Part shown: piece by piece, positions 25,618-52,620 of the stretch
How the letters are laid out: the number at the start of each line of letters is the position of its first letter
Position numbering within the stretch: the stretch's first letter is position 1
Origin: an uncultured delta proteobacterium
Lineage (GTDB): Bacteria; Desulfobacterota; Desulfomonilia; Desulfomonilales; Desulfomonilaceae
NCBI GenBank assembly: GCA_963789265.1
Contig: CAWBKB010000004.1
Location: 96,001 to 160,000, forward strand
Reading direction: 5' to 3'
DNA length: 64,000 nucleotides
Made by a program: the position numbers and the translations under genes
Notes under the pieces: model-generated
Databases searched by the model: none
Told to the model about the DNA's origin: nothing
The model's input: only the letters and a program-made list of their open reading frames with translations

Positions 25618-25848
25618 GTGTCACATCGAGGAACAGAAATTCTAAGAGAGGCCCTATCTCTTCCTCCTGATGATCGGGCGGAAATAGCGGAGCGACTGCT
25701 GTCAAGTCTCGACCCCCCAGACCGACAGAATCTAGATGACCTGTGGGCAAGTGAAGCCGAAGACCGTCTTGACGCATACGAACGAGGTGAAATTAAAACC
25801 ATTGACGCCAAGCAGGTTTTTGATCAAATCGCTCCCAAGGCCAAATGA
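25618..25848 (+). CDS. Addiction module antitoxin (TIGR02574-like)
   Basis: ALSLPPDDRAEIAERLLSSLD...W..EAEDRLDAYERGE. ATGA overlap with the toxin. Confidence 0.88.
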   Translation: MSHRGTEILREALSLPPDDRAEIAERLLSSLDPPDRQNLDDLWASEAEDRLDAYERGEIKTIDAKQVFDQIAPKAK

Positions 25849-26150
25849 ACGTCGAGTTTCTTGAACCCGCGTGGGCAGAGTTCATCGAGGCTGTGGAGTA
25901 TTATAATGGCCAAAAGGAAGGACTCGGCTTTGAATTTTCTGAAGAGATTTGGACTACAATCGAAAGGATTATCCAATATCCTGAAGCCTGGTCACTAATT
26001 TCCAAGAGAACTCGACGCTGCCGTACAAACCGTTTTGCCTACGGAATAATGTATCAAATCAGAGGTAAAACTCTCCTCATCATTGCCGTCATGCATCTTC
26101 GCCGCGAACCCCTATCTTGGAAAAGAAAAATTCCTAAGCGAAGCCAGTAG
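25845..26150 (+). CDS. Type II toxin, RelE/ParE family
   Basis: MNVEFLEPAWAEFIEAVEYY..GLGFEF..RRCRTNRFAYGIMY..LLIIAVMHLRREP. Confidence 0.9.
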   Translation: MNVEFLEPAWAEFIEAVEYYNGQKEGLGFEFSEEIWTTIERIIQYPEAWSLISKRTRRCRTNRFAYGIMYQIRGKTLLIIAVMHLRREPLSWKRKIPKRSQ

Positions 26151-30113: not shown

Positions 30114-31791
30114 ACGCTGCCATTCACGGATCAAATCTTCCTGGGCGACTCTGGCGGTGTTAGCCGCCGTCACAATCATCTACACTGCTTCGATTATAGC
30201 TGCCAACGGATTTACAATTGACGATGCCTATATCTCGGCCAGATACGCAAAGAACCTTGCCGTTAGCGGTCAATTGACGTGGAACTTGGGGGAATCTCCG
30301 AAGACGGAAGGATACACATCGCCGCTTTGGGTTGTCGCATCATCATTGATGTTCTTCGTGACTAACCGCTCTTCATTTCGACTGATGCAGCTCATGAGCA
30401 TTGTTTTCGGAGCTTTGACGCTATTGATGCTGTTTGCGCTGGCACGCAGGCTACATTTTTCGGGAAGCACGGCTGCATTGCCTCCTTTGTTTCTGGCCCT
30501 GAGTTCCCCGTTTGTTTTATGGAGTGCCTCCGGAATGGAGAATGCTCTTTACACGTTTCTGATTCTCCTGGGACTGTACCTGGTAATTGATGAAGAAGAT
30601 AAGGGATTAAGGTATGAAACTCCGTTGGTCTTATTTCTTGTCTTCCTGGCTCGGACGGAAGGCCTGGTGTTCTATGGCGCAGTGGTCATTGTCAGAAGTA
30701 TCAAATTCGTACTAAACATTGATGGCGCACGCGGCCAAATAAAGAAGCTTCTCACCTGGAATGCAATATTTCTATCCTGCTTTCTGGCGTACCTACTTTG
30801 GAAAATTTACTATTACGGAGCAGTTCTGCCTTTGCCCGTGTATGTCAAAAGGCCGGCCGGACTTGTGGGCTTGGCGTACGTCGGGAGCTTCTTAATTTAT
30901 GTTGCACCGTTTCTGTTATTAGCATTGCTTGGCTTGAGAAATGCCCGGAACATAAAGAAGCTGTATTTGTGGGCCGCGCTTGGTTCCTATCTCCTGGCAA
31001 TCTCCTTTTCAAATCCAATGATGGGATATGACTATAGGCTTCTGGTCGCGGCCTTCCCCCTTGTGTATTTGCTTGCCGCATGGGAGCTGGATCTGCTATT
31101 CAACAGCGAGTTCACAAATAAGGTGAATGCATTGCTATACATTGTGATTGTATGCTTTCTTTCGATTACGATTACAAAGTACCCGGTAGACTATGCGGAT
31201 TCATTGCGTGACAAAGCCTCGGCAAGCGCTCAAGTTCTCGGGCAAGTACACATTCCGCTGGGCAAATGGCTCCACCAACAGCAGGTAAAGGCCGGTATGA
31301 AGAGGGTTGCCCTTGCAGATGCGGGTGCCATTTCGTTCTATTTCGGCGGCGAGACCATAGACCTTTATGGCTTAAACGACAGAGAGATAGCGCACAAAGG
31401 ATTTTCCGTCCGGCGAGTTCTCGACAGAAAACCGGATTACGTGATTCTCAACAGCAGGAGCGATACGAAGTTTCAGGGCAACAACACACCCTGCGGGGAG
31501 ATGTCCGAGGAAATATTCGCGTCAGACCTGTTCAGAAAGCACTATTCGTTCGTGAAGCAGTTCGTGAGCTACAAGCCATTTTACTCATTATGGGTATATG
31601 AGCGGAAATTCAAAGGCTCTTCGCGTAAGTGCGTGCCTGGCATTTTTCATTCGCGTGTGCCTGTGAAAGTCCCTGGAATATGCCAGCATACCAACACGGT
31701 ATTTACCGCCCATCGCGGTTCCAGCACAAAACTGATAGGTCTTAACTATGCCTTCGTATCACCTGGATGTGGTTGCCCCCAGGTTTCGTAG
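30103..31791 (+). CDS. Polytopic membrane glycosyltransferase (GT-C fold-like)
   Basis: IDDAYISARYAKNLA..G.LTWN.GE..EGYTSPLW, SGMEN, RTEG, DAGAI.F...IDLYGLND. Many TM segments. Confidence 0.78.
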   Translation: MHFERCHSRIKSSWATLAVLAAVTIIYTASIIAANGFTIDDAYISARYAKNLAVSGQLTWNLGESPKTEGYTSPLWVVASSLMFFVTNRSSFRLMQLMSIVFGALTLLMLFALARRLHFSGSTAALPPLFLALSSPFVLWSASGMENALYTFLILLGLYLVIDEEDKGLRYETPLVLFLVFLARTEGLVFYGAVVIVRSIKFVLNIDGARGQIKKLLTWNAIFLSCFLAYLLWKIYYYGAVLPLPVYVKRPAGLVGLAYVGSFLIYVAPFLLLALLGLRNARNIKKLYLWAALGSYLLAISFSNPMMGYDYRLLVAAFPLVYLLAAWELDLLFNSEFTNKVNALLYIVIVCFLSITITKYPVDYADSLRDKASASAQVLGQVHIPLGKWLHQQQVKAGMKRVALADAGAISFYFGGETIDLYGLNDREIAHKGFSVRRVLDRKPDYVILNSRSDTKFQGNNTPCGEMSEEIFASDLFRKHYSFVKQFVSYKPFYSLWVYERKFKGSSRKCVPGIFHSRVPVKVPGICQHTNTVFTAHRGSSTKLIGLNYAFVSPGCGCPQVS

Positions 31792-31844
31792 CTGCTTCTT
31801 GGCGTATTCATTGCCTTGTTCGGCAGCCTTTCTGAAAAGCAAAA

Positions 31845-32877
31845 GGGTCAAGTCTGCTCTTGACTCATACCGGACGTGGTGGTATGGCTGGTCCATGTCG
31901 CGGCCGTTACGAATTCAATATCCGGACGCCTGGTACCATGTGATGAACAGGGGCAGACGCGATGAAGTGATTTTCCCCGGACCGGAGGATTATCAGCGAT
32001 TTATGGAACATTTACGGGCAGGCTCCACCATGTGGAATGTCAGGATTGCAGCATTTTGCCTGATGCCGAATCACTACCACCTGTTGGTCCAGACTCCGGA
32101 TGCTAACCTTTCACGGTTTATGAGGCATGTGGACGGCGTATACACTCAGCGATTCAACTGGTTCCACAAGTGCGACGGCTCTCTCTTCCGAGGCCGTTAC
32201 AAGGCCATTCTCGTAGAGGCCGACACGTATCTGCTCGATTTGGTCCGATATATTCACCGGAATCCATTGCGGGCCGGGTTGGTGAGTCGACTCGATCGAT
32301 ACCTCTGGAGCAGCCACATAGCTTATTTGTCCCTTTCAGCTAGATGGGCTTGGCTATACAGGGAAATGGTGTTCTCCATGCTGTGCCGGGCTGGAGAGGA
32401 TTCGGCAAGGGCCTACCGGGAGTTCATGGTGCAGGACGAATCAGAGGAGTTCACGGCAGTGTTGTCCAAAAGAAATGTCCCGTCGCTTCTGGGATCAGAT
32501 GAGTTTGTGGGCTGGGTGAAGGCAAACTTTCAGAGCCTCCGATCTCATCGAGAGATGCCTGCCTCACGGTTACTCGTTCCGGGATTGGAGGCGATACAAT
32601 CTGCCGTATGCGCGAGCTATTGCATAGATCGCAATGAGCTGCTGTCGAGCAGAAGAGGAATGAGCAACGACGCCAGGAACGTGGCAGTCTATCTTGCCAG
32701 ACGGCTCTCCGGTCAAACACTGTCAACCATAGGAGATGCCTTTGGACTGGAGCATTACAGCAGTGTGAGCAGCGTGGTTTCTCGCATGAAGCAAAAGATC
32801 GCGAGCGACAGGAACCTGAGAAGGAAAGTGCAAGCGATCGAGCGAACCCTCCTATGAGTCAAGAGTAGACTTGACCC
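31845..32877 (+). mobile_element. RAYT-type HUH element bounded by 25-bp inverted repeats
   Basis: GGGTCAAGTCTGCTCTTGACTCATA (31845-31869) and TATGAGTCAAGAGTAGACTTGACCC (32853-32877) are 24/25 reverse complements. Confidence 0.85.
31895..32857 (+). CDS. REP-associated tyrosine transposase (Y1 HUH) with C-terminal DnaA-C-like HTH
   Basis: MSRPLRIQYPDAWYHVMNRG, CLMPNHYHLL (HUH), LFRGRYKA, RYIHRNP, WSS. C-terminal ARNVAVYLAR..TLSTIGDAFG..HYSSVS. Confidence 0.92.
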   Translation: MSRPLRIQYPDAWYHVMNRGRRDEVIFPGPEDYQRFMEHLRAGSTMWNVRIAAFCLMPNHYHLLVQTPDANLSRFMRHVDGVYTQRFNWFHKCDGSLFRGRYKAILVEADTYLLDLVRYIHRNPLRAGLVSRLDRYLWSSHIAYLSLSARWAWLYREMVFSMLCRAGEDSARAYREFMVQDESEEFTAVLSKRNVPSLLGSDEFVGWVKANFQSLRSHREMPASRLLVPGLEAIQSAVCASYCIDRNELLSSRRGMSNDARNVAVYLARRLSGQTLSTIGDAFGLEHYSSVSSVVSRMKQKIASDRNLRRKVQAIERTLL

Positions 32878-32880
32878 CAT

Positions 32881-33048
32881 CCCTACGGGGCGATCTCGGA
32901 CAAGGAACTTGTCGCCGCTATAGACCAGTTGACCTTCGATCACGGCGATTCGGGGATCGCCGGTCAACCCCTCATTCTGAGTCCTGTTAGCTATTTGTTA
33001 GCTGGAGATCAAAAAACCGGACATTCAGATGTTAGAATATCCGGCTAA
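32881..33048 (+). pseudogene. Possible C-terminal remnant of a tyrosine integrase
   Basis: Startless frame PYGAISDKELVAAIDQLTFDHGD..., cut by the RAYT right IR and ending 14 nt from the tRNA 3' end. TGTTAGCT direct repeats at 32985 and 32996. Confidence 0.45.
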
Positions 33049-33062
33049 CTTCTTGTTATTAT

Positions 33063-33137
33063 TGGTGGAGATGAAGGGATTTGAACCCTCGACCCCCGCG
33101 TTGCGAACGCGGTGCTCTCCCGCTGAGCTACATCCCC
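33063..33137 (-). tRNA. tRNA-Ala (anticodon CGC)
   Basis: GGGGATGTAGCTCAGCGGGAGAGCACCGCGTT-CGC-AACGCGGGGGTCGAGGGTTCAAATCCCTTCATCTCCACCA. G3:U70 pair, encoded CCA. Confidence 0.97.
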
Positions 33138-33514: not shown

Positions 33515-34696
33515 TCATTTCTCAGGCAACAAGGACTCTACCAAGCTGACCCAGTAGCCTGCACCTAATGAAAGCAGGCGGTCATTAAAATCGTACCCGG
33601 ACTGGTGCATCATTCCGTTGGGGCGTGGCTGGCCTGCACCTATGCCCATGTATGCGCCGGGCACGGACTTTATCATGAAAGAAAAATCCTCGGAATACAT
33701 CACGGGTGGAATGTTCGTATAAACATTGTCGCTTCCGGCGACAAACGAGGCCGCCCCAATAGCTTCCTCTGTTTCTTTGTCGCTATTGATTACAGCCGGA
33801 TAACGCCGCTGGTATTGAATATCTGTACTGACCCCCATCGATATCTCCAACCCACGCAGCACTTCCTTCATACGGGTCTCCAATCGGTCCTGGATGTGCG
33901 GCTGAAAATGCCGTGTACAACCACGAAGCAATACTTTATCCGGAATCACGTTATAGGTCGTACCGCCATGAACTTCCGTAACACTTAAGACCGCTGCTTC
34001 GATGGGATCGATACTTCGACTCACGATAGTTTGGAACATGGTAACGGCTTGGGAAGCGGCCACTAGCGGGTCTCGTACATTTCCGGGCAGGCCGCCGGCA
34101 TGTCCCCCAACGCCCGTTACTGTTATGTCGAAAATGTCATAGGCCGCCATAAAAGGGCCGGTGCGTATGGCGAAGGTGCCCTCGGGCAAGCTGGGAAAAT
34201 TATGCAGTCCGAAGACGCAATTCATGGGGAAACGTTGAAAAAGCCCGTCTTCAACCATTACCTTGGCACCGCCGCCAGTCTCTTCCGCCGGTTGAAAGAT
34301 GAAGTTGACCGTGCCGCTGAATCTGCCCTTTGAGGCGAGATGTTTGGCGGCCCCGAGGAGCATGGCCATGTGGCCGTCGTGTCCGCATGCGTGCATCTTG
34401 CCAGACACCGTGGATTTGTATGGAAGATCGTTTTCCTCTTGAATGTCCAAGGCGTCCATATCTGCCCGCAACCCAATGGCTCGCGGATGGCCTTGTCCTC
34501 GTACAAGTGTGGCTACGATCCCCGTCCGGCCGATTCCTCTATGGACATCAAGGCCAAAGGACTCTAACTTTCCGGCCAGGAAATTAGACGTCTCCCTTTC
34601 CTGAAAGGCGGTCTCCGGGCAGGCATGAAGATGATGTCTCCAGGCCGCCATCTCAGATTCGAGAGAAGCTATGTCCGTATCAATTCCCATGTCCAT
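33515..34696 (-). CDS. M20D aminoacylase/amidohydrolase
   Basis: LRADMDAL, MHACGHDGH, FQPAEE, GGHAG, SEDFS, MMHQSGYDFND. Confidence 0.92.
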   Translation of the reverse strand: MDMGIDTDIASLESEMAAWRHHLHACPETAFQERETSNFLAGKLESFGLDVHRGIGRTGIVATLVRGQGHPRAIGLRADMDALDIQEENDLPYKSTVSGKMHACGHDGHMAMLLGAAKHLASKGRFSGTVNFIFQPAEETGGGAKVMVEDGLFQRFPMNCVFGLHNFPSLPEGTFAIRTGPFMAAYDIFDITVTGVGGHAGGLPGNVRDPLVAASQAVTMFQTIVSRSIDPIEAAVLSVTEVHGGTTYNVIPDKVLLRGCTRHFQPHIQDRLETRMKEVLRGLEISMGVSTDIQYQRRYPAVINSDKETEEAIGAASFVAGSDNVYTNIPPVMYSEDFSFMIKSVPGAYMGIGAGQPRPNGMMHQSGYDFNDRLLSLGAGYWVSLVESLLPEK

Positions 34697-34752
34697 GACC
34701 TCCTCAGATCTTTTCGTGCCCGGGCCGGAATCATCCCGGATTCATTCAGGTG

Positions 34753-36066
34753 TCAACTTCCGACGTCCTTAGTAATCATGATCCGCAAGATCGTCCTGTC
34801 CGTTTCTGCCATTCCCTGTGTACTGAGCTTGCCAATATTTCGCACAGTCTGTTCGGAGGTCGAGGCAATTATGCCGTCAGTTGACTTGACATCGATGCCG
34901 TGGAGGGCGAGTAGAGCGGATTGAACCGCCGTTCCTGCTGCAGTGGCGAGTTTCAGGGAGCAGCCTGCTTTGGCCCCATCACAGATGACGCCTGCCAGGT
35001 CTTCTATCAGGTTCTTGATAGCGCTGGCGATATGATGAGTGTTCCCATTCATCAGGTAGGCTATCCCGCCCGTGGCGCCGGCGCCAGCCGCGACGGAGCA
35101 CCCGCATATCGCCGAGAGGCGGCCGATATGCGCCTTGATATAAACTGTCAGAATGTGGCTCAACGCTATAGCGCGCAGCATACGGGAGGGATCCTCACAG
35201 GTGATGTAATCGATCAGGGCCCTAATGGGTAGTACCGCTGTAAGTCCGTGGTTTCCGCTGCCCGCGGAACTCATCGCGGGAAGATTCACCCCGGACATGC
35301 GTGCGTCCGAGGCGGCGGCGGTCAAAATCCGGGCCGCCAGGATCATGTCCTTTTTGAGCAGACCTTCGCTCACAAGTCGTTGGAGGGTCATGCCGACCCC
35401 GAGCCCTGGGCCGTTTTTCAGGCCATGTGCGGCGAGCGCCATATTGGTCCGAATGCCCTCTTCGAGAAACTGAAAATCTTCGGCATCCAGGTCATCCAAT
35501 AGCCCCACCATCTCTTCGAGAGAAAGGCCGGAAATCCATTGTTCCAAAGGCCGGATACTTTCATTAGAGTGCTCGCTTGCCGAAAGGAGTGGATGGTCAT
35601 AGACCGGGACGCCATTTAGTTGCAGCCCTGCAATGTGATCATGGGCATCCTCAAGGATCGCCTCAGCCCGGTAACCGCCACTCCTAACAGACACCTTAAT
35701 AAAGACGGGCTGCTCTGTTTCGAGCAAGTGAACCTCAACTTTCTCTTTCGAAAGGAAATCCTTAGCCAGCTTGAAGGTCTGATCGTTAATGGGTTTGAAG
35801 ACCTCGAGTTTCAGAAAAGGATCTCCTCCGAAGGCTCCCAATGCGGCAGCCAGATCTATACCGAATTCACCCTTCGTTCCGGGTATGGCCACCCCCATAG
35901 CGTTCTTGTACACATTGGGACTCACCCAGAGTTCAATGGAAGATAGGTCTTTTCTCGGGAGTAGCGTGACGGCTGCCGCTGCGCAAAGCGCAACCGCGGC
36001 AGGCTCTGTGCAGCCAAGGGCAGGTAGTACTTCCAGATGCAGAATATCCTTGATCCGGTAAGTCAT
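34753..36066 (-). CDS. L-cysteine desulfidase (YhaM/CyuA-like, serine dehydratase alpha family)
   Basis: PALGCTEP, KNAMGVAIPG, ASDARMSG, GSGNHG, GRLSAICGC, GVICDGAKAGCSLK. Confidence 0.9.
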   Translation of the reverse strand: MTYRIKDILHLEVLPALGCTEPAAVALCAAAAVTLLPRKDLSSIELWVSPNVYKNAMGVAIPGTKGEFGIDLAAALGAFGGDPFLKLEVFKPINDQTFKLAKDFLSKEKVEVHLLETEQPVFIKVSVRSGGYRAEAILEDAHDHIAGLQLNGVPVYDHPLLSASEHSNESIRPLEQWISGLSLEEMVGLLDDLDAEDFQFLEEGIRTNMALAAHGLKNGPGLGVGMTLQRLVSEGLLKKDMILAARILTAAASDARMSGVNLPAMSSAGSGNHGLTAVLPIRALIDYITCEDPSRMLRAIALSHILTVYIKAHIGRLSAICGCSVAAGAGATGGIAYLMNGNTHHIASAIKNLIEDLAGVICDGAKAGCSLKLATAAGTAVQSALLALHGIDVKSTDGIIASTSEQTVRNIGKLSTQGMAETDRTILRIMITKDVGS

Positions 36067-36146
36067 CTAAAATCCCCAATAGATTAAGAATGCGCTATGC
36101 TGCTCGTCTCCCGACTCTAGCCCCGGAACGAGGGCAAATTGGGGGA

Positions 36147-36992
36147 CTATTCCTCTGCCGATGCCGACGAAAAGCGAAAATCACAAAAGGGCGCACCTTC
36201 CATAATAGTCTGAGTTCGGGTGAACCTTATCTTGGGGTTAAAGCCTTCCATCAAAGCAAAATCCCGCCCACAGGAAAGAAGAAAACCGAATTCTTCCAGG
36301 CTGTGCTCCCGGTACATCTCCGCATACTTACACCGCGTTACGTTGACGGAGGCTTTGGCAGGAGTCGCCTCAAGCACCTCAAACTCCAGGGCGCCGGCCT
36401 GACTGAATAGTGGTAAGGCCTTTTGTAAGTGTTCCATGCTGTTTCCGCCCGCCACCATTTGTAAAAGCTTCCCCGCTTGCCGGGCCAGGGATTTAATCTC
36501 CGCCTGACTGACTTCAAGGGCAGGCTCCCGGCCGAATTTCTCAATAAAGGCTTTGATGAGAGGGGCGGCAATGAGGGCTTCAATCTCACGCCGAATGATG
36601 ATGGGCACACTGTTGATGTCCTCCATAACTGTTCCTCCTGCTTCCACGGTGGGTTCGTTGGGCTGAGCTGTCGCCTCCCTTGTAATAACCAGATCTTTGA
36701 CCACTTTTTTTTGATTTAGCGGCTCAAGTGTGATGTCTCCTTCGACGCGGGTCTGACAAATAAGGCCGGCGTGCCCGTTTATTTTCCCTGTACAGCGGCC
36801 GCAGATCCCCAATGCGCAGCCGGCATGGTCGTAATAGGCCAGTGTGCTGTCCTGGTTTTGGTAGACGTAATCAAGGGCATCCATGGCACTCATGCCTTCT
36901 TCAAAAGGCACTTCATATGTTTTGTAATAGGGGGTCTTGTCCACAGAAGGGTCGAACCGGAAGATCCTCACTTTTATCAAGTCATTCGACAT
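36147..36992 (-). CDS. Fusion: SdhB-like 2Fe-2S domain + L-2-amino-thiazoline-4-carboxylate (ATC) hydrolase domain
   Basis: N-terminus IFRFDP...CALGICGRC..ING...C...LEPL...VKDLV. C-terminus RREIEA..APL, VTRCKYAEMY, LSCGRD..EGFNP, TRTQTIMEGAPFCDFRF. Confidence 0.88.
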   Translation of the reverse strand: MSNDLIKVRIFRFDPSVDKTPYYKTYEVPFEEGMSAMDALDYVYQNQDSTLAYYDHAGCALGICGRCTGKINGHAGLICQTRVEGDITLEPLNQKKVVKDLVITREATAQPNEPTVEAGGTVMEDINSVPIIIRREIEALIAAPLIKAFIEKFGREPALEVSQAEIKSLARQAGKLLQMVAGGNSMEHLQKALPLFSQAGALEFEVLEATPAKASVNVTRCKYAEMYREHSLEEFGFLLSCGRDFALMEGFNPKIRFTRTQTIMEGAPFCDFRFSSASAEE

Positions 36993-37013
36993 GCTCGTTC
37001 ACCTCGCTCTTTC

Positions 37014-38789
37014 TCAATGTTTGCCACCGGTATCCGAACGTGATTCCATCATCTTCTTGATGAATTCGAGGTAGGGCGTCACGCCGGTTGGAGGTGTCAT
37101 GGTGGTGACAGTCACGGGTCTCTTGATCACCTTGGAGCCGTCACTCTCCCTCTTGACGATGCTTTCCTGAAGCCAGTTATCATTGTCGACATTTGGGTAG
37201 TCTTCACGAAAATGCACGCCTCGGCTTTCAGTGCGAAGCAGGGCACTTTGGGCCGCCATCTCCAGGAGTTGAACCATATTCTGTAGTTCCAAGGCGTCGA
37301 TCCACTCCTTGTTGTACGTCCTGCTCTTGGAGGTAGTTGCCAGGCTGGGAAGCTCATCTTTCCCGACCGAATTCAATAAGTTGATAAATAACTCTAGCTC
37401 GTCCTTGTTGCGGATGGGACCGAGAAACTTGTGGGCAGCCTCCTGAACACGCCTTCTAACTTTGGGAGGATTAAGACCTTTCGGCCTGAGTAGAGGTGCC
37501 TCGGTCCGTTCACGGATAGCAATGAGGGTCTTTTCATCAGGATCCTGTGCTTTCGCTTTCTTGGCGTATTCTCCTGCATTGGCTCCCGCATCCGCTCCGT
37601 GCACGAGCATCTCGGTGATCGCCGCAAACACCCGGTTGGCTCCAAAAGCACCTAATGTGCATTCTCCGGCTGCGTAGAGTCCCTCCAAGGTCGTTTCAAA
37701 ACGCTCGTTAACCACGATGCCTCCCTCGAAATATTCCGCGGCCGGCCCGACCTCGACCGGTTCGTTCTCTTTTAGCTTCCGGCCCCACTCCGATAGGTCT
37801 ATGGCCTTATACTTCCACTTCGGAAAAACCAAAGAAGCAATGAGTTCGACTTTCTCCCAAGGCACATCGCCCCGGCTGAAATGCACCCCTCCGTTGGGCG
37901 TTCCCTTGCCCGCCCGGACCTCCTTCATGGTGGCATGGGAGATGAAGCTCTTGTTCCACTCCGTTAACGATCCGACATTGACAACAAAAGGGTCATATCG
38001 TTTCAAGAATTCCTCTCCGAGGCCGTTCGTCAAACTACCACCCACCAACAGACTCAACATGTAAGGCGCGATGCTGCCCCGCCAGATCGGGGGGTGCAAG
38101 AAGACATTGCAGCAGAAAGTTATAAATTCCATGTTCCCCAGATCGGCGCCCGCCCGGTGGGCAATGGCAATCCCGTCTCCCGAGAGATCCCGCATGCCGG
38201 TATTGGGCCAGAAGGCTTTGTGCCAGCCACCTGTGGCCATCACCACGGCTTTGCATCGGAACTGCAAGTATTCGCCCGATCGGATGTCCAAGCCGACAGC
38301 GCCGGTGACCTTTCCTTCGTGGGCAACCAAGTCCAGGAGCAAAACATCCGCACGCAGATCAACTTGAATGGACCTGGCCTTTTTGAGCAAGGCATCCATA
38401 ATCCCTATTCCGCTAGTGAAGATCATTCGTTCATCCGATAGCTTGATCTGAATTCCCCATTCAATCAATTCTCTAAGGCACTGTGGAGCCAACCGGATAT
38501 ACTGCTCCACAAGCTCCTGGTTGTTCAGGAAACATCCTTGTGTAACAATGTCATTGAATACCTTTGCGGGGCTGTCATTGGGATCTCCTCTCAGCCCTGC
38601 GATCTGACTCATGCTCCGGCCATCGAGAGTGAAGTCAGCCCCCGCCATGGGGGTTGCTCCGCAGCGCGCGAGGGGCCCCTTACTAAGGAGAAGGACACTC
38701 ATGCCCTTCTCTCTGGCCGCAATGGCCGCCCTGAAACCGGCCCCACCTCCGCCTACCACCAGTACGTCGGTTTCTATCTTTGGAGTCAT
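37014..38789 (-). CDS. SdhA/FrdA/NadB-superfamily FAD oxidoreductase, non-canonical active site
   Basis: DVLVVGGGGAG, MATGG, SGDG.A.A.RAGA, GLYAAGE, GANR, RTESRGVHFREDYP. Confidence 0.9.
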   Translation of the reverse strand: MTPKIETDVLVVGGGGAGFRAAIAAREKGMSVLLLSKGPLARCGATPMAGADFTLDGRSMSQIAGLRGDPNDSPAKVFNDIVTQGCFLNNQELVEQYIRLAPQCLRELIEWGIQIKLSDERMIFTSGIGIMDALLKKARSIQVDLRADVLLLDLVAHEGKVTGAVGLDIRSGEYLQFRCKAVVMATGGWHKAFWPNTGMRDLSGDGIAIAHRAGADLGNMEFITFCCNVFLHPPIWRGSIAPYMLSLLVGGSLTNGLGEEFLKRYDPFVVNVGSLTEWNKSFISHATMKEVRAGKGTPNGGVHFSRGDVPWEKVELIASLVFPKWKYKAIDLSEWGRKLKENEPVEVGPAAEYFEGGIVVNERFETTLEGLYAAGECTLGAFGANRVFAAITEMLVHGADAGANAGEYAKKAKAQDPDEKTLIAIRERTEAPLLRPKGLNPPKVRRRVQEAAHKFLGPIRNKDELELFINLLNSVGKDELPSLATTSKSRTYNKEWIDALELQNMVQLLEMAAQSALLRTESRGVHFREDYPNVDNDNWLQESIVKRESDGSKVIKRPVTVTTMTPPTGVTPYLEFIKKMMESRSDTGGKH

Positions 38790-38791
38790 CT

Positions 38792-39304
38792 CTATCCTCG
38801 CTTCTTAGAGGGCGATTGGTCGAATGAGACTTCCGGTTTTCTTTCGCTGATGACCTGGTCAAAGTACAGCGCCATGTCCTTGAAGAGTTCGGAGAGAAAG
38901 CCATACTCCCGAGGTGTGACCTCCGCAAACCGGTTGATAATGTTGGCATCCATCCGGGCATGAAACTCCCGGTGTCCGTGAAAGGCAATCTGGCCTCGTT
39001 TGGTTAATCTCAGTAACACCTCTTTCAAGTTGCCCTGGCCGTTGTAACGCTCGACGAGCTTCTTCTTCACGACCTTTCCGACGATCTGGGTTACTGCAGG
39101 CTTTGAGATGCCCAGCACTGATGCTAAGCCGGTCATATTGATGCTCGGATGTTTTCCTATAGCCTCCACGACATGGATCTCCGAGGGGAACAATTTGTCT
39201 CCGGTCCCGAAATCCCGGGCCATCTTTTCAAGGGCTGTGAATTTGTTCAGGGCAATCACGAACAGATTGATCAATTCCGCTAATTGCCCGGATCTTGTTT
39301 TCAT
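38792..39304 (-). CDS. MarR family transcriptional regulator
   Basis: DFGTGDKLFPSEIHVVEAIG..NMTGLASVLGISKPAVTQ..N.KEV.L.LT.RG. Confidence 0.92.
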   Translation of the reverse strand: MKTRSGQLAELINLFVIALNKFTALEKMARDFGTGDKLFPSEIHVVEAIGKHPSINMTGLASVLGISKPAVTQIVGKVVKKKLVERYNGQGNLKEVLLRLTKRGQIAFHGHREFHARMDANIINRFAEVTPREYGFLSELFKDMALYFDQVISERKPEVSFDQSPSKKRG

Positions 39305-39312
39305 GGAAATAT

Positions 39313-39341
39313 AGTTAAGCAGGTTAATAAAATGTTGTCAA
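39313..39341 (-). promoter_or_regulatory. sigma70 promoter with overlapping palindromic operator (near-leaderless marR)
   Basis: TTGACA-17-TTAACT ending 8 nt before the ATG, with no SD. Imperfect palindrome TTAA-GCAGG-TTAA over the -10. Confidence 0.55.
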
Positions 39342-39680
39342 GCTTTTTCCGGTGCTTTAGAATTCAGACCTGTTTTTCTGGAACTTTTTTCGGCACCTCC
39401 TTGCTCGATGCCTGGCGAATAGTATACTTGGGGTCCGGACGAAGGGCCTGACGGTGAGACGATCGGGCCGGACTTGACAGTTTCACGGTGAATCGGATTG
39501 ATTCTCATGGCACTAACGCCATCACAGTAAAGTTTCACCACATATATTATTTCTTAAATGTTACATTTCATGACTTTATTGGTTAATGTTCCACCGCACT
39601 TTTCGACTTTACTCGGACATTTCGGACAGAAGTGTGGCATGATACGAAGGGCCTCTCGCCGCCGCACAAAGGAACCTGGC

Positions 39681-40319
39681 ATGCAAGCTCGCAGAAGAAC
39701 TGCTAAGAGGAGCATCAGCACCCTGATCATCTCTCAGGAAGGGATCGAACTCGGCATTCTGGAAGTGCTTAAGAAGCATGCAGCAAAGAACGGACTCACC
39801 AACTCCGAATTGCTTAAGAAGTGCGGCGCGCGGCTGAAGCGGTCTCTGGCGGCATTGTTCAAGCGAAAGGAGCCCAGGAGCGAAGACGTCAAAGGTCTGC
39901 TTTACAATCTCTGGAGAAGCGGGTTTCTGTTTTTTGAGCCTCCTAATAGTGGTCAACGAGTGGGCCGAGTCTGGGGCATGGAGTCGGCACGGCAGATCTT
40001 TCCGTCGGCATGCTTCTTCACGCCGAAACATGGTAGCTCCAAGGAAACGACAGAGAATACTCGGGAAGCACTTAAAGCGGCGTACAGCAAATTCGTCCCC
40101 GAGCATCTGGGCGGGTTTGTGCCGATTTTCAAGGTGCGCCGGGCACTGGACTGGTCAAGCCAAGCATTCGATAGCCTACTGCGGGACTTAAATGAGCGAC
40201 AAGAGCCGGTGGTGGAGCTGCACGCTGGGGATCCTGCCGATCTGACCGAGGCAGAAAAGCGCGATTCTTTGTGGAAGAGCGGCAGATTGCTGATTCGAAT
40301 GCGCTGGAGGGAACCATGA
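39681..40319 (+). CDS. Hypothetical protein, probably winged-helix-like (start uncertain)
   Basis: C-terminal GGFVPIFKVRRALDW...FDSLLRDL...VELHAGDP. ATGA-coupled to the ATPase. Confidence 0.7.
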   Translation: MQARRRTAKRSISTLIISQEGIELGILEVLKKHAAKNGLTNSELLKKCGARLKRSLAALFKRKEPRSEDVKGLLYNLWRSGFLFFEPPNSGQRVGRVWGMESARQIFPSACFFTPKHGSSKETTENTREALKAAYSKFVPEHLGGFVPIFKVRRALDWSSQAFDSLLRDLNERQEPVVELHAGDPADLTEAEKRDSLWKSGRLLIRMRWREP

Positions 40320-42389
40320 AGGAATTGAGTCTTAAACTCCCCTTCAACCCGTTCGTGGACATTGCGGTAGGCAATCCCTGGAAATCCGACGAGCCCGACG
40401 TCAGGAGCATAAACGCCGCAGCCTACAACGGCTTGCTTGGGCTGATCAAACAGCTCGTCAAGACTCCGCATTTGGCGGCACTGGTTCTGGGGTCTGCCGG
40501 GAGCGGAAAGACTCACTTAATCAAAAGGCTGTTGCAATCCCGTGACGCGAATGTGCTGTTCGTATACGTTCACCCGATGAAGGATCACAAAAGGGTATTC
40601 ACGACTCTCATGGAGCATGTTTCCACAAATCTGGCAGCCCGTCCGCCTTGGGTCAATGAATCGGCACATGCGACTCAGCTCGATCTCACGGTGGTTAATG
40701 TGATAACAGCAGCTTTCGAGAACTACCTTTGCTTGAATCCGGAGGACCCTGGAAGAATCTACCTTAAAAGCATCAAGAAAGATCCTTTGAAGATTCTGTC
40801 ATTCAGGAAGTCCCCGAAATGGAACGTACTTATCGACAATGCCCAGGAATTTCTGAAAGATAGGCCTTCCTTTCGCAGCGTGACCTCAAGGAAAGTGCTG
40901 CGAGCAATGTTTCAGTATCTCGACAAATCCAAGCGGGAAGCAGTGCGCACTTTTCTCAGCGGCACAATTCCCGATCAAGAAGAATGTGAGGCTCTTGGCC
41001 TTAGATACGGCGAAGGGGACTGGTCAATTGAAGCCCAAGAACAGCGATCCAAAGACATTCTAAAGACAGTCGGCGGCCTGTTGGAATTCTATCGCCCAAT
41101 GGTGTTGTGCTTCGATCAACTGGATTCCATTGAAGGGCCTGAATTGATAAGGGCAATAGGAACCCTCTTCATGGACATCGTGAACGAAATCGAAAACATC
41201 CTGCCAATCGCATTCATGAGGCCGGAGAACTGGGAGAATCATTTCAAGAAGCAATTGGACCGATCTGCCGAGGACCGAATGACATCTCAAAGCCTTTCGC
41301 TGGAGGGGTGCAATTTAGAGCAAGCCCTCGATATCGTCAGAGAAAGACTAGCCTGGGCATTTCAGTCAGCTTCAGAGGTTCCGCCGGATCCCTTCTTCCC
41401 CCTTGATCGCCCTATGATTGAAAAACGGCTGAAAGGTGTGACCAGCCCGCGTGACGTCCTGTCCATAGCCCTCAATGTGCTTTCCAAAGGGAAACAGCCC
41501 TGGGGTCGAGAAGATCCTACGGAGGTGGTGAAGAAGCAGTTCGAAGCCGAACGTGAAAAGCTGCTGGCGTTAGGCGAACAAGAGCCGGTACGCCAAGACA
41601 CGGTGGTAGCGGCTTTAAAATTGTACTTCGAAAACCAACAAGATCGGCATGGATATCGAGCCACCAATGTCGAAGTGTCAGGCGAGGACATCCGACTTCG
41701 GGCTAAACCGGCCGACGGGGCACATCAGGAAAGAATAGTCGAAATACGCGTCGAGACGGCTATCCATTGGAACCCACTTAGCAAATCTCTCGAGAGACTC
41801 AAAAGATCAATAGAAGGGAACTTGAGTGACTTCGCGTTTCTTATCCGGGATGATCGGTGCCGGATCCCTCCAAAGAAAGGATCTATGCCAAAGACAGTCG
41901 AGAAGCTGAGAGAGTTTCAACGTGCAGGCGGTCATTTGCATTACATTGATTACCAGAACCCTCACTTCACTTTACGCTCTGGTGTATACGTGGGATAAAA
42001 TCCGAGCGGGCGATCTTTCTTATGTTTCGGGAGAACATGAAGAGCGCGAAGTAGTCGACACAGCAAACTTTCTTGAATTCGTGAGGGAAGAATTTGATTG
42101 CGACATGCTTAACCGGATGGAACTCCAGTTCTTGGAGGCGGGGCATGCTAAAAGACTGACAGTGGCGCGGCCAAGCGCACAAAAAGAGAAAGAAATCTAT
42201 TCAGCTATCCAGTCCATTCTTGATGAGGCTCCTTACAAACTCAAACTGGAGCAAATACTGGTGCGGCTTCAAGAAAAGGGCATCGTGAAGGATCTGCCTC
42301 ACAGCTTTTTAGCCGAACTGATTGGCAAGCACAGCGACAGGTTCGGTAATATCAGCGTTACACCGCCCATCTACTTTCTGAAGAAGTAA
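40316..42389 (+). CDS. P-loop/AAA-type ATPase, +1 frameshift about 41958
   Basis: FNPF..VGNPW, GSAGSGKTHL Walker A, VLCFDQLD Walker B, FFPLD. Continues in ORF 41922-42389. Confidence 0.82.
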
Positions 42390-42614: not shown

Positions 42615-42827
42615 GCAACCGGCCACATAAAGCTTGACCGATTCAACGGCTTGTGCCATGTAAGAAACAATGAATATATCATTCCAAACCTAGGCACAGT
42701 CTGAATAAGTCGTATGGCTTAACGTCTTTCAGCCCCATCGCTCCGTATATAGTCCATGGGAAAGTTGCCAATCTAAACCTCAAAGTCACCAACCACAAAA
42801 AACTCTGTGAGAGAGGAGGACTTGCTT

Positions 42828-45800
42828 ATGGATGCCACTCGCCGGGAGTTTTTGGTAGTCTCCGGCATACTGGGCACAGGTGTGGCGCTGTCATCGCTGG
42901 GACTCGATTTAAGGTCGGCCAAGGCTTATGCCGACGCACTCAAAATCAATAAGCTGAAGGCGGCAAAACACTCCACGTCGATCTGTCCGTACTGCTCAGT
43001 GGGCTGCGGATTAATGGTCAGCATCGAGTCGAAAACCGGAAGGATCATCAACATCGAAGGCGACCCGGATCACCCGATCAACGAAGGATCGCTTTGTTCC
43101 AAGGGCTCAGCCGTTTTCCAGACCACGGCGAACAATCCCAACAGGCTTAAGAAAGTGCTTTATCGAGCGCCTTACAGTGAGAAGTGGGAGGAAAAGTCGT
43201 GGGATTGGGCCATAACTGAGATCGCCAAACGAGCAAAGAAGACCCGAGATGCCTCCTTTGTCGAAAAGAACGCCAAGAGGCAGGTGGTTAATAGAACTGA
43301 AGCCATCGCTCATATCGGGAGCTCCAACATCGACAACGATGAGTGTTGGGCGTTTAATGGCCTAATGCGGTCGTTGGGTCTCGTTTATATCGACCATCAG
43401 GCCCGGATATGACACAGCCCGACAGTTGCGGCTCTGGGAGAGTCGTTCGGTCGAGGCGCAATGACCAATCACTGGATCGATCTGAAGAATAGTGATTGTT
43501 TTCTCATCATGGGCAGCAATGCTGCCGAAAACCATCCCATTTCCATGAAATGGGTGTTACGAGCCAAGGATCGGGGAGCAACGGTGATCTCCGTGGATCC
43601 GCGCTTCACCAGGACATCGGCCATAGCCGACTTCTGGACCGGTTTGCGTTCGGGGACCGACATCGCTTTCTTGGGTGGAATGATCAACTACATCCTGTCC
43701 AAGGACAAGTATTTCAAGGATTACGTCGTTAACTATACGAATGCTCCATTCATTGTTGACGAAAAGTTTTCGTTCAACGACGGACTCTTCTCCGGTTGGG
43801 ACCCGAAGAAGAAGAAATATGACAAGGCATCATGGGTGATCAAGAAGGACGCCAAGGGTTTGCCGCAGAAGGATATGACTCTCCAGAATCCCCAGTGCGT
43901 CTTGCAGTTGCTCAAAAAGCACTATTCGCGCTACACGCCTGAGAAGGTTTCCGACATCACGGGCACACCGGTCGAAGACCTCTTGAAAGTGTATGAAATC
44001 TATTCGGCCACAGGCCAAAAGGGGAAATCCGGCGCTATCATGTATGCTCTCGGATGGACCCATCATACGGTCGGCGTGCAGAATATCAGGGCCAGCGCTA
44101 TCCTCCAACTTCTTCTCGGCAATATTGGCGTCCCCGGCGGAGGGATCAATGCACTTCGAGGCCAGCCCAACGTTCAGGGTTCCACTGACGGTTGCCTCCT
44201 CTGGCACCTGCTCCCCGGATACCTGAAAGTTGCCAAGGCGTCTCAGCAAACATTGGCGGATTACAATAAGGCAAATACCCCGAAAACTTCTGATCCCATG
44301 TCGGCCAACTGGTGGGGCAACTATTCGAAGTACAGTGTGAGTCTGCTGAAGTCATACTATGGTGACAAGGCGACCAAAGACAACGACTTCGGCTATGCCT
44401 GGCTGCCGAAGCCCGACGATGGGAAGACGTACTCATGGCTGGACATCTTCGACGAGATGTACGCGGGCAGAATCAAGGGGTTGTTCTTGGTCAGTCAAAA
44501 TTGTGCCGGAAGCTCTCCCAACGCCAATAAGACTAACCGCGCCCTGGCCAAGCTGGATTGGTTGGTGCACACCAATATCTTCAACAACGAAAGCGCCTCC
44601 TTCTGGCATGGTCCCGGTATGGATCCTAAGAAGATCAAAACTGAAGTCTTCTTGCTGCCGGCCGCATGTTCCGTTGAGAAGGAAGGGAGTCTCACGAACA
44701 GCGGTCGATGGGTCCAATGGCGCCACAAGGCTGCTGATGCACCCGGAGATGCCATCTCGGACGGGGAAATGTGTGTAAGGATCGTCAACAAGCTCAAGGA
44801 ACTCTACAAGAAAGAAGGCGGTAAGTTCCCGGAGCCCATTCTCAACCTGAAATGGGATTACGTCGACGACAGGGGGCGGTTCGACACCCACAAGATGGCA
44901 AAGGAGCAGAACGGTTACTTCCTCAAAGATGTGGAAGTAAAAGGGCAGAAGTTCAAGAAGGGTGATTTGGTCCCGTCTTTTGCGTTCCTTATGGACGACG
45001 GTAGCACAGCGAGCGGAAACTGGCTCTATTGCGGGAGTTACACGAATAAGGGGAACATGATGGCCCGCAGGGGCAAAGAAGATCCTACAGGATTGGGCAT
45101 ATATCCCAATTGGTCCTGGTGCTGGCCGGTCAATAGGAGAGTCATCTACAACCGGGCATCGGTGGATCTCAATGGGCAGCCTTGGAATCCCGAGCGTCCT
45201 CTCATCAAGTGGGACGGAAAGAAGTGGGTCGGGGATGTGCCGGACGGTCCCTGGCCTCCCATGGGCGACAAGGCGGGTAAGTTGCCGTTCATCATGAAGC
45301 CGGACGGGGTGGCATCCTTGTTCGGGCCTGCGATGGTGGAAGGTCCTTTCCCCGAGCACTACGAGCCGGTGGAAAGCCCCCTCAAAGACAACCTGATGTC
45401 GAGCCAGCGCAACAACCCGGCCATCAAGCTGTACAACAGCGACATGGACAAGTATGCACAACACGATCCAAAATTTCCATTTGTATGCAGCACATACACG
45501 ATAACAGAACACTGGTGCTCCGGATCCATGACCCGGTGGCAGCCGTGGCTCCTTGAGGCTCAGCCGGAACTCTTCGTGGAGATCAGCGAAGAACTCGCCA
45601 AGGAACTCGGTATTAAGAAAGGTGATCGCGTAAAAGTTAGCTCTATCCGCGGTGAAGTTGAAGCAGTAGCAGTTGTAACGCCGCGTTTCCGTCCCTTCAA
45701 AGTGGGCGGAAAGACCGTTCATCAGGTGGGCATGCCGTTCGCCTTCGGGTGGCTCATTCCCAAATCGAAGAAGGACTCCTCAGCTAACCTGCTGACCCCC

Positions 45801-45869
45801 AGCGTTGGTGACCCCAACACCTTGTGTCCGGAGTACAAGGCGTTCATGGTCAACCTGACGAAGGTATAA
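42828..45869 (+). CDS. fdhA: Formate dehydrogenase alpha subunit, selenocysteine-containing, Tat-exported
   Basis: TRREFL Tat motif, CPYCSVGC...CSKG, DHQARI-TGA(43410-43412)-HSPTVAALGESFGRGAMTNHW in frame. 1013 aa, Sec195. Confidence 0.96.
43428..43446 (+). promoter_or_regulatory. SECIS element of fdhA
   Basis: GCGGCUCU-GGG-AGAGUCGU hairpin starting 15 nt after the UGA. Confidence 0.7.
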
Positions 45870-45882
45870 GGAGGTGTAAGCT

Positions 45883-46530
45883 ATGGCTCAAGGTTTTTCG
45901 ATACTTGTGGACACCTCCAGATGCACGGGATGCCGGGGGTGTCAGATTGCGTGCAAGCAGTGGAATCAATTACCTGCAACAGTTACGAAGAACTGGGGAA
46001 GCTACCAGAATCCCCAAGACTTATCAGCAGAAACGTGGAAGCTGGTCAGATTTTCGGATGGGGCCAATGGCGATGGTAAACCCTACTGGTATTTCTTCGT
46101 CGATCAATGCCGACACTGCCTATCACCGGCGTGCATGGCTGTAGCGGAGAAAGACGAGATAGTCCAGGATGAGAAAACCGGAGCCGTGCTCTATACGCCG
46201 AACACAAAAGACCTCGATTTCAAAGCCGTGCTCAAGGGGTGCCCGTACGATATCCCGAGGCAGGATTTGAAAACCAAGGTTCTGTTCAAGTGCACAATGT
46301 GCTTTGACAGAATCACGAACAATCAGATCCCCGCGTGTGTGAAAACGTGCCCAACCGGCGCGATGACGTTTGGCGAACGGACCAAGATACTGGCAATGGC
46401 CAAGAAGAGAGTAGAGGAACTGAAGAAGGTTTATCCTAAAGCAGTCGCACTGAACGCGGACGAAGCTAGAGTGATCTATGTAGTGAAGGATGAACCGCAA
46501 AAGTACTATAAGTTTGCGGCCGGCAAGTAG
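45883..46530 (+). CDS. fdhB: Formate dehydrogenase iron-sulfur (beta) subunit
   Basis: CTGCRGCQIACKQWN, QCRHC..PAC, CPYDIP, KCTMC.DR...PACVKTCP. Confidence 0.93.
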   Translation: MAQGFSILVDTSRCTGCRGCQIACKQWNQLPATVTKNWGSYQNPQDLSAETWKLVRFSDGANGDGKPYWYFFVDQCRHCLSPACMAVAEKDEIVQDEKTGAVLYTPNTKDLDFKAVLKGCPYDIPRQDLKTKVLFKCTMCFDRITNNQIPACVKTCPTGAMTFGERTKILAMAKKRVEELKKVYPKAVALNADEARVIYVVKDEPQKYYKFAAGK

Positions 46531-52526: not shown

Positions 52527-52620
52527 AAGCGTAGTCTGAAGCGACTTGTTTGGGGAAAACTCAAGGATGGGTTTTCCCCAAGTTGTCCAATTCCCAGATT
52601 TCCAAAAGCAGATTACAAAA

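Follow-up and report, generated by a model that had tools for sequence, protein, structure and literature searches.

The DNA analysed here, referred to as the window, is a 64,000-nt stretch (positions 96001-160000 of contig 4, CAWBKB010000004.1) from the genome of an uncultured delta proteobacterium, a soil sulfate-reducer relative whose assembly comprises 6.06 Mb in 9 contigs. Five co-oriented minus-strand open reading frames (ORFs) span 33515-39304 of the window, in the order marR, flavoprotein, [2Fe-2S]/PF14196 fusion, CyuA-type desulfidase and M20D aminoacylase. From marR to the M20D gene, the intergenic spacers are 2, 21, 80 and 56 nt. An initial annotation of this DNA had described five co-oriented, tightly spaced genes and proposed that they form an anaerobic operon leading from thiazolidines and thiazolines to cysteine. 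The arrangement was borne out by the ORF listing, and, because Pfam and NCBIfam scores agree, its gene labels (marR, SdhA-like flavoprotein, fusion of 2Fe-2S and 2-aminothiazoline-4-carboxylate (ATC) hydrolase domains, cysteine desulfidase, M20D amidohydrolase) are all correct. The genes and domains of the operon are the following.

38792-39304, minus strand: MarR-family regulator, 170 aa, first operon gene (Pfam MarR 34.7 bits, gathering score 24.6; MarR_2 34.7 bits)
37014-38789, minus strand: SdhA/FrdA-superfamily flavoprotein, 591 aa, with a remodelled substrate site (A51, Y243, K280, E352, R386; FAD_binding_2 151.5 bits, Succ_DH_flav_C 98.5 bits)
36147-36992, minus strand: fusion protein, 281 aa, with an SdhB-type N-terminal [2Fe-2S] domain, a linker of ~25 aa and a PF14196 domain (Pfam)
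36672-36974, minus strand: Fer2_3 domain of the fusion protein (residues 7-107), motif C59-x4-C64-x2-C67-x11-C79 (Pfam 92 bits)
36171-36593, minus strand: PF14196 'ATC hydrolase' domain of the fusion protein (residues 134-274), predicted V4R/H-NOX-like fold (Pfam 112.8 bits)
34753-36066, minus strand: CyuA-type L-cysteine desulfidase homologue, 437 aa (SDH_alpha 199.6 bits; similarity to E. coli CyuA)
33515-34696, minus strand: M20D aminoacylase-type amidohydrolase, 393 aa, last operon gene (Peptidase_M20 151.5 bits and M20_dimer; TIGR01891)

The nearest solved chains of the flavoprotein are complex II flavoproteins. Its scores stay far under the cut-offs of all NCBIfam equivalogs: TfrA is best with 274 bits (cut-off 718), sdhA_frdA_Gneg reaches 256 bits (567) and L-aspartate oxidase nadB (TIGR00551) 171.8 bits (452.75). 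Residues were mapped onto E. coli FrdA and SdhA in alignments to the solved chains, and the numbering was verified by counting. In FrdA numbering, we take H44 to carry the covalently bound flavin adenine dinucleotide (FAD), R287 to be catalytic, and H232, T244, E245, H355 and R390 to serve the dicarboxylate site or catalysis. The position of H44 is occupied by Ala51, so the histidine for covalent 8-alpha-FAD is gone. Catalytic R287 is replaced by Lys280 and H355 by Glu352, the T244/E245 hinge reads Tyr243/Met244 in the window protein (I, M or L at the second position across the family), R248 is Leu, and the H232 position is variable in the family. Among the dicarboxylate-site and catalytic residues mapped, only R390 is kept, as Arg386. 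A51, Y243, the E277-W-N-K280 motif, E352 and R386 were invariant in sets of 15, 40 and 55 family members. This family-wide replacement of the covalent histidine, the catalytic arginine, the second histidine and the Thr-Glu hinge argues strongly that the protein is not a fumarate, succinate or aspartate enzyme; activity on fumarate or aspartate, which the initial annotation had named as one outcome that would count against its proposal, is thereby disfavoured. A glutamate beside the retained arginine and the loss of the second carboxylate site fit a pocket adapted to an amino or imino acid (ammonium plus carboxylate) rather than to a dicarboxylate. The extreme C-terminus of the flavoprotein (window 37014-37040) is also conserved, with the consensus ...SHSDTGGHH and with S585, G589 and the terminal His591 invariant in 40 members. 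We know of no counterpart of this tail in SdhA or FrdA; it might reach a metal site or a partner subunit.

The fusion protein begins like an iron-sulfur subunit of complex II. Its Fer2_3 domain matches only residues ~5-105 of solved SdhB/FrdB chains (E down to 4e-11) and superposes on them, and the cysteines C59, C64, C67 and C79 are invariant in 16 fusion proteins. The SdhB family model dhsB (TIGR00384) gave 73 bits, under its cut-off of 88. Since the solved SdhB/FrdB chains align to the first ~105 residues only, the [4Fe-4S]/[3Fe-4S] domain of SdhB is missing from this protein. In an AlphaFold2 model, the mean predicted local distance difference test score was 77.5, with linker residues 98-123 below 50. 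Both domains were present in 71 of the 120 best listed relatives of the fusion protein (55-100% identity); the other 49 were single-domain proteins, 48 of them PF14196 alone (most ~157 aa) and one [2Fe-2S] alone. The sources of these relatives include Desulfomonilaceae, Desulfomonile tiedjei, Desulfatibacillum aliphaticivorans and Syntrophorhabdales.

The PF14196 match of the C-terminal half covers model positions 1-145 of 145 and lies well above the gathering score of 28.1. When the modelled domain was compared with the PDB by Foldseek, the phenol-sensor domains of PoxR, MopR and DmpR came first (E ~1e-5), followed by TRAPP Bet3 and H-NOX, and the domain is accordingly modelled as a V4R fold. 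In DmpR, zinc is bound at the corresponding site by Cys151, Glu172, Cys177 and Cys185 (PMC7264223), and a cluster of three conserved cysteines is attributed to both V4R domains and PF14196 (PMC5847659). In 136 aligned PF14196 domains, C221 and D244 were present in all 136, C270 in 135 and C241 in 117. Four conserved arginines and several acidic residues make up a polar pocket, whereas the phenol pocket of the structural relatives is hydrophobic; residues R134, R135, E136, E138, Y223, E225, Y227, R243, R259 and T262 of the window domain are common to most stand-alone PF14196 proteins. Because the pocket is charged and its residues are identical to those of partner-less proteins from mostly aerobic lineages, we favour the inference that the domain is an autonomous metallohydrolase rather than an electron-transfer module. 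The only activity named for PF14196 is thiazoline ring opening (PMC5847659); in PMC13435710 and PMC9674144 a 'thiazoline-4-carboxylic acid hydrolase' is mentioned as an annotation listed in omics tables.

The remaining two enzymes are assigned to families that handle cysteine and N-acyl amino acids. Over 423 aa the desulfidase shares 38% identity with CyuA of E. coli K-12 (E 3e-79), which supports the earlier label of a YhaM/CyuA-type enzyme. It matched the solved L-cysteine desulfidase 9fsl with 152 bits and showed no similarity to the serine deaminase TdcG. In the pairwise alignment four cysteines are common to both proteins (C19, C321, C362 and C369 in the window protein). The M20D protein scored 338.3 bits against TIGR01891 (cut-off 153.75) in NCBIfam and 42.2 bits against the carbamoylase family TIGR01879, under the cut-off of 204. 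Its best solved relatives are Arabidopsis ILL2 (1xmb, 238 bits) and then B. subtilis YxeP (1ysj, 234 bits). The kinship with ScmP-type N-acyl-cysteine deacylases that had been suggested is thus upheld, YxeP/ScmP being the second-best solved relative; the enzyme is described as a highly specific N-acetylcysteine deacetylase in PMC12757645. Homologous clusters contain one or the other of two unrelated M20 families of aminoacylase type, TIGR01891 or an ArgE/DapE/ACY1-like one. Ectoine-type degradation of a cyclic amidine was considered and set aside, the matches to M24 DoeA-like, M20D DoeB2-like and EutC-like models being well below cut-offs.

The recurrence of the gene set was examined in 158 related loci (78 from genomes and 80 from metagenomes, labelled L001 and so on) retrieved via similarity to the fusion protein. 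Six-frame ORFs of these loci were searched with the five window proteins, additional M20/M24 queries and an iterated PF14196 profile. After duplicates (L118, L136, L158, L151, L123) and the own-genome and E. coli loci had been left out, 59 flavoprotein loci remained; 27 of them carry at least 2 kb of flank on both sides and are called well-flanked, and neighbours were counted within 5 kb. Three independent contigs (L005, L081, L082) show the exact five-gene order, and their fusion proteins share 77-82% identity with that of the window. With an identical order on three independent contigs, the five-gene arrangement is more than chance. Partial sets and other gene orders occur in L001, L002, L003, L021, L057, L084, L090, L094, L105, L145 and L166, for example:

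L001: MarR, flavoprotein, fusion, MFS, CyuA
L084: flavoprotein, fusion, MFS, M20D
L094: M20D, flavoprotein, fusion
L090: CyuA, flavoprotein, fusion, M20D
L002, L003, L021, L105, L166: flavoprotein, 2Fe-2S and PF14196 (fused or adjacent), with CyuA and an ArgE/DapE/ACY1-like M20

Frequencies of the neighbours are given below for all flavoprotein loci and for the well-flanked ones; the 2Fe-2S and PF14196 counts are inflated by the retrieval of the loci via the fusion protein.

2Fe-2S gene near the flavoprotein gene: 59/59 loci, 27/27 well-flanked
PF14196: 39/59 loci, 24/27 well-flanked
CyuA: 14/59 loci, 8/27 well-flanked
Any M20/M24: 14/59 loci, 9/27 well-flanked
CyuA or M20/M24: 19/59 loci, 11/27 well-flanked
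CyuA and M20/M24: 9/59 loci, 6/27 well-flanked
MarR: 9/59 loci, 6/27 well-flanked

For an unbiased sample, the flavoprotein served as the sole query against 200 further genomes from the phylum (E <= 1e-120). An orthologue was found in 6 of the 200 and in none of the three same-family genomes; five of the six carriers were tested further. PF14196 lies 0.2-5.8 kb from the flavoprotein gene in all five, and a CyuA homologue (E <= 1e-20) is encoded in one, where it adjoins. In the sixth carrier genome an SDH_alpha ORF lies 2.2 kb downstream of the 2Fe-2S gene. With PF14196 nearby in five of five unbiased carriers and CyuA present in one of five, the conserved core is the trio of flavoprotein, 2Fe-2S and PF14196, fused or split, and CyuA and the deacylase are frequent add-ons. 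The expected conservation of the neighbourhood therefore holds in part: the whole gene set does co-occur elsewhere, in the three contigs named above, and the unit that is conserved is the trio. At least 59 non-redundant loci carry the trio, and their sources include Desulfobacterota, Bacillota and Spirochaetota, among others. In about one third of the loci it is accompanied by CyuA and M20-type deacylases, for the most part in that branch of the flavoprotein tree to which the window protein belongs.

Elsewhere the trio lies beside aminotransferases (L018, L043, L164), a racemase (L050), DAO and OCD genes (L103, L111) or AMP-ligases. PepQ/DoeA-like M24 proteins, OCD/mu-crystallin, sarcosine-oxidase-like DAO, MR/MLE, Asp/Glu/hydantoin racemase and amino-acid transporters are among the neighbours, which is typical of the metabolism of cyclic or N-substituted amino acids (imino acids, N-acyl-amino acids). 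PF14196 also occurs with CyuA and M20D in clusters without a flavoprotein (L019, L123), and CyuA lies near a solo PF14196 gene in L027 and L074. As these four loci lack the flavoprotein yet pair PF14196 with CyuA, PF14196 appears to be linked to cysteine independently of the flavoprotein.

Several of these loci have features of their own. The CyuA-PF14196-M20D clusters are compact (L019, 6647-9709; L123, 4619-7699) and may be a flavin-independent version of the pathway; the one in L019 adjoins a fused TRAP transporter and an MtaA/CmuA-like (URO-D family) methyltransferase. L155 (4860-9450; near-duplicate L158) has the order M20D, flavoprotein, 2Fe-2S, M24 (PepQ/DoeA-like), with no PF14196 gene within 5 kb, and here the PF14196 step may be taken over by an M24 amidino- or peptide hydrolase. 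Stand-alone PF14196 proteins of ~157 aa (L028, L036, L054, L071 and ~40 other loci) are 45-55% identical to the window domain and share its charged residues. They are encoded in Planctomycetota (including Singulisphaera acidiphila), Methylomirabilota, Chloroflexota, Acidobacteriota and the ammonia-oxidising archaea Nitrosotalea/Nitrosocosmicus. No conserved neighbours were found for the stand-alone genes of Planctomycetota, Methylomirabilota, Chloroflexota and Nitrososphaeria, and on this ground the pattern is typical of a housekeeping or repair enzyme. One recurrent 'neighbour' cluster turned out to be an antisense shadow ORF of the PF14196 gene itself.

An IQ-TREE quick tree was built from 55 near-full-length flavoproteins; duplicates, two repeat-contig loci and fragments with fewer than 540 aligned positions were left out. 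It falls into two halves, both of which have 98% support in the SH-like approximate likelihood ratio test (SH-aLRT). The window's half holds 13 CyuA-linked members, 8 without CyuA and 5 unscorable ones (13/21 scorable), and the other half 3, 9 and 17, respectively (3/12 scorable). Mapped on the tree, the CyuA label required 10 changes against a mean of 14.0 after shuffling, and 6 of 500 shuffles were as low. CyuA linkage is thus clustered and non-random on the tree; because relatedness inflates such tests, we take this result as clustering only. The aminotransferase (L018, L043), racemase (L050), DAO/OCD (L103, L111) and M24 (L155) contexts all fall in the other half. The two halves agree in their catalytic residues, and differences are confined to a few positions beside the pocket (F230 vs L, P242 vs T, M122 vs A), which suggests the same chemistry on related substrates in both.

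The surroundings of the operon contain the following elements.

33063-33137, minus strand: tRNA-Ala(CGC) gene, directly downstream of the operon (ARAGORN)
33046-33015, minus strand: terminator-like hairpin, 12 pairs and a T-run, downstream of tRNA-Ala
31748-32857, plus strand: IS200-like Y1 transposase ORF with a DnaA_C helix-turn-helix domain, beyond tRNA-Ala (Pfam)
39558-41998, plus strand: an ORF without assignment and a weak AAA_22 ORF, on the opposite flank (Pfam)

The tRNA-Ala gene and the hairpin (33015-33137) are the likely 3' boundary of the transcription unit. The interval delimited at first, 33515-39341, begins at the stop of the M20D gene and ends 37 nt upstream of the marR start. 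A consensus promoter scan upstream of marR found no minus-strand promoter; the TTGACA hexamer at 39341-39336 lacks a good -10 element at 16-18 nt, and hence no promoter is claimed for the operon. According to the Pfam scan of the window the flanks are unrelated genes, and the operon itself contains no gene for a transporter, membrane anchor or acetyltransferase in the ORF and Pfam listing. The flavoprotein, PF14196 and the CyuA homologue are each present in a single copy in the whole genome. A search for sequencing runs listed three soil-metagenome DNA runs from one study and no RNA run. The adjoining tRNA-Ala gene and IS200-like ORF, together with the patchy occurrence of the flavoprotein in the phylum, suggest that the operon was acquired horizontally.

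At a rough probability of 0.4, we read the locus as an operon, controlled by MarR, for the breakdown of an N,S-heterocyclic amino acid that derives from cysteine and is of the thiazolidine-4-carboxylate type. Such compounds are adducts of an aldehyde with cysteine, and thioproline and its 2-substituted relatives would be examples. The flavoprotein, a soluble enzyme derived from complex II that would bind FAD non-covalently, would take a hydride from the ring carbon beside the nitrogen. R386 and E352 would hold the amino-acid end of the substrate, K280 would act as base, and electrons would exit singly via the [2Fe-2S] domain to a soluble acceptor. The tethered PF14196 domain, judging by its family name, fold and charged pocket, would then hydrolyse the thiazoline ring to N-formyl- or N-acyl-L-cysteine. 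The acyl group would be stripped off by the M20D protein, as its membership in an aminoacylase family implies, and the [4Fe-4S] desulfidase, given its identity to CyuA, would convert cysteine to pyruvate, NH3 and H2S. Such a scheme, from thiazolidine via thiazoline, N-acyl-cysteine and cysteine to pyruvate, would use every part of the operon and fits all of them. A further-reaching view, which we consider possible though rather doubtful, sees in the trio a hitherto unrecognised soluble class of enzyme derived from complex II, in which the cluster domain of SdhB was swapped for a V4R-fold metallohydrolase to give a bifunctional dehydrogenase-hydrolase and the first dedicated anaerobic route of thiazolidine catabolism or repair. 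Working at low potential and independently of O2 and quinone, that enzyme would oxidise the N,S-acetal rings of aldehyde-cysteine adducts and open the labile thiazoline within one complex; related amino-acid adducts would be the substrates of sister enzymes from the other branch of the tree.

The proposed system combines features of several known ones. Pseudomonas converts L-ATC to L-cysteine with the hydrolase AtcB and then AtcC, an N-carbamoyl-L-cysteine amidohydrolase; both systems would pair a PF14196 ring-opening hydrolase with an M20-superfamily amidohydrolase that gives cysteine. Unlike in that pathway, PF14196 of the window is joined with a [2Fe-2S] domain in one protein and coupled with a flavoprotein, the M20 enzyme is of aminoacylase rather than carbamoylase type, and a desulfidase is present in addition. 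In E. coli and mammals thioproline is oxidised by PutA/ProC, followed by hydrolysis of N-formylcysteine. The chemistry proposed here (from thiazolidine via thiazoline and N-formylcysteine to cysteine and formate) would be the same; the enzymes are unrelated, PutA being a Pro_dh TIM-barrel, whereas the operon would combine a flavoprotein of complex II type, an Fe-S relay and a hydrolase domain for the ring opening. With complex II and the soluble fumarate reductases (SdhAB/FrdAB; thiol:fumarate reductase TfrAB) the system shares FAD_binding_2 and Succ_DH_flav_C and a partner that starts with an SdhB-type [2Fe-2S] domain with four cysteines. It differs from them in the lost covalent-FAD histidine, the replaced catalytic arginine, histidine and Thr-Glu hinge, the V4R-fold PF14196 in place of the [4Fe-4S]/[3Fe-4S] domain and the lack of a membrane anchor. 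CyuA of E. coli (YhaM) is similar over its full length, with the four cysteines conserved in the alignment; there cyuA is paired with the cysteine importer CyuP, whereas the window gene stands with enzymes that would generate cysteine intracellularly. In the B. subtilis scm (yxe) pathway for S-(2-succino)cysteine (2SC), an M20D deacylase likewise frees cysteine from N-acyl-cysteine as the last salvage step, and PMC12757645 places an acetyltransferase and an O2-dependent monooxygenase upstream of it. In contrast, O2-independent flavoprotein, Fe-S and PF14196 components are proposed here, and the window operon would degrade cysteine further via CyuA.

Several observations weigh against thiazolidine catabolism as the function of the operon. 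The initially proposed pathway stands insofar as it accommodates all parts, yet nothing singles out thioproline or any thiazolidine as the substrate. PutA of E. coli oxidises thioproline. The present genome encodes a PutA-type proline dehydrogenase in an ORF elsewhere, which could already carry out this oxidation, so that a lack of other thioproline routes cannot be argued. CyuA is near the trio in merely 8 of the 27 well-flanked loci and M20/M24 in 9, the higher 2Fe-2S and PF14196 counts carry the retrieval bias noted above, and CyuA is absent from four of the five tested carriers of the unbiased sample. The flavoproteins are 57-85% identical across all gene contexts. Since the CyuA-linked and CyuA-poor halves of the tree have identical catalytic residues, the chemistry is generic, and cysteine may be just one of several end products. 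Moreover, no electron-acceptor gene is conserved beside the trio in the compared loci.

Part of this evidence points towards a broader view. The trio would be an anaerobic dehydrogenase of general type whose substrate is an amino or imino acid without sulfur, PF14196 would stand in for the lost cluster domain of SdhB in a ligand-binding or structural role instead of acting as a hydrolase, and CyuA and M20D would be genes of amino-acid or peptide catabolism that are merely co-located. The rarity of CyuA in the tested carriers would then be expected, as would aminotransferases, a racemase, AMP-ligases and others beside the trio and the same catalytic residues in all contexts; the fold relatives of PF14196 are moreover sensor domains with structural zinc. 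Against it stand the non-random CyuA linkage on the tree and the joining of PF14196 with CyuA, and in L019 and L123 with M20D, where no flavoprotein is present (also L027, L074). The charged pocket residues common to stand-alone proteins without a flavoprotein partner also fit an autonomous enzyme, and we consider this view unlikely. The same enzyme logic, with dehydrogenation beside the nitrogen, hydrolytic ring opening by PF14196, deacylation and beta-elimination, could instead act on another cyclic or N-substituted sulfur amino acid, such as a thiomorpholine or ketimine ring from lanthionine, cystathionine or aminoethylcysteine, or a ring of a natural product or siderophore. The evidence from the trio, M20 and CyuA applies equally to such a compound, OCD/mu-crystallin-family and DAO genes lie beside the trio in L103 and L111, and genes for MFS, TRAP, LivK-type ABC and amino-acid permease proteins indicate that it would be imported. 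However, the only named PF14196 activity concerns a five-membered thiazoline, and a ketimine-type ring gives no N-acyl product, which leaves the recurrent aminoacylases unexplained; we do not expect this alternative to hold, with a chance that is small and still appreciable.

Known pathways account for the operon less well. Degradation of ATC (also ATCA), the cyanide-cystine product, via N-carbamoyl-cysteine as in Pseudomonas, with the flavoprotein as an accessory, would agree with the solid PF14196 membership (112.8 bits) and with the flavoprotein-free clusters L019 and L123, which resemble such a pathway. We regard it as improbable, given that the M20D protein fails the hydantoinase/carbamoylase model (42 bits vs 204) and belongs to the aminoacylase family, and that an oxidation-free route leaves the fused or constant flavoprotein and 2Fe-2S partners of PF14196 unexplained. 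In a breakdown of 2SC, the SdhA-like enzyme would dehydrogenate the succinyl moiety, hydration would free oxaloacetate and cysteine or N-acetylcysteine, and M20D and CyuA would finish the pathway. The SdhA ancestry of the flavoprotein and the resemblance of M20D to ScmP of the B. subtilis 2SC pathway are in line with this proposal, which is made very improbable by the family-wide replacement of complex II residues (R287 by K, H355 by E, T244/E245 by Y-I/M, with the H232 position variable) and by the missing acetyltransferase gene. That an ordinary fumarate reductase, succinate dehydrogenase or L-aspartate oxidase lies by chance beside cysteine genes is scarcely credible: it would be suggested by the domains present and by unspecific names in databases ('fumarate reductase iron-sulfur subunit'), but equivalog scores are far under cut-offs (TfrA 274/718; nadB 172/453), key residues are replaced, the Fe-S partner has no [4Fe-4S]/[3Fe-4S] domain and there is no membrane anchor gene.

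The initial annotation had further linked the operon to a nearby formate dehydrogenase and two aldehyde oxidoreductases, to which formate or aldehyde products could be handed on. This link found no support in the comparison, as the 158 related loci hold no FdhA homologue and one aldehyde oxidoreductase homologue. The ORFs at 42807-43412 (Molybdop_Fe4S4) and 43461-45869 (Molybdopterin, Molydop_binding) on the plus strand form one frame with an in-frame TGA at 43410-43412 ('...HQARIUHSPTV...'), and 42807-45869 looks like a single selenocysteine-containing formate-dehydrogenase-like alpha subunit; a 4Fe-4S subunit follows at 45883-46530. An 798-aa redox protein is encoded at 52546-54942 on the plus strand, with Fer4_20, an NAD-binding Rossmann domain, two 4Fe-4S motifs and a CCG domain, an unusual GltD-like/HdrD-like fusion that is directly preceded by a Mo-hydroxylase at 49812-52526. 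A ParE-toxin family ORF lies at 25845-26150 on the plus strand (Pfam E 7.8e-06).

Taken together, the operon is real and recurs elsewhere, and the enzyme architecture at its core, which derives from complex II, is undescribed; the thiazolidine pathway is the best available hypothesis for it, as yet unproven. In line with the initial annotation, for which no description of the gene set was known, a full-text literature search returned no description of the fusion, the trio or the operon, most subscription journals lying outside its coverage. If the hypothesis is true, it would assign a function to a widespread, unstudied flavoprotein/2Fe-2S/PF14196 trio that is patchy within its own phylum, and give the PF14196 family a role beyond the single industrial activity that is its only known one. 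It would show how strict anaerobes recover or consume cysteine locked in aldehyde adducts. The operon would also be a clear case of complex II re-tooled for amino-acid chemistry, with both the substrate pocket and the C-terminal module of SdhB being new. Even if the proposed substrate is wrong, the trio is an undescribed enzyme architecture with a defined active-site signature (Y243, K280, E352, R386).

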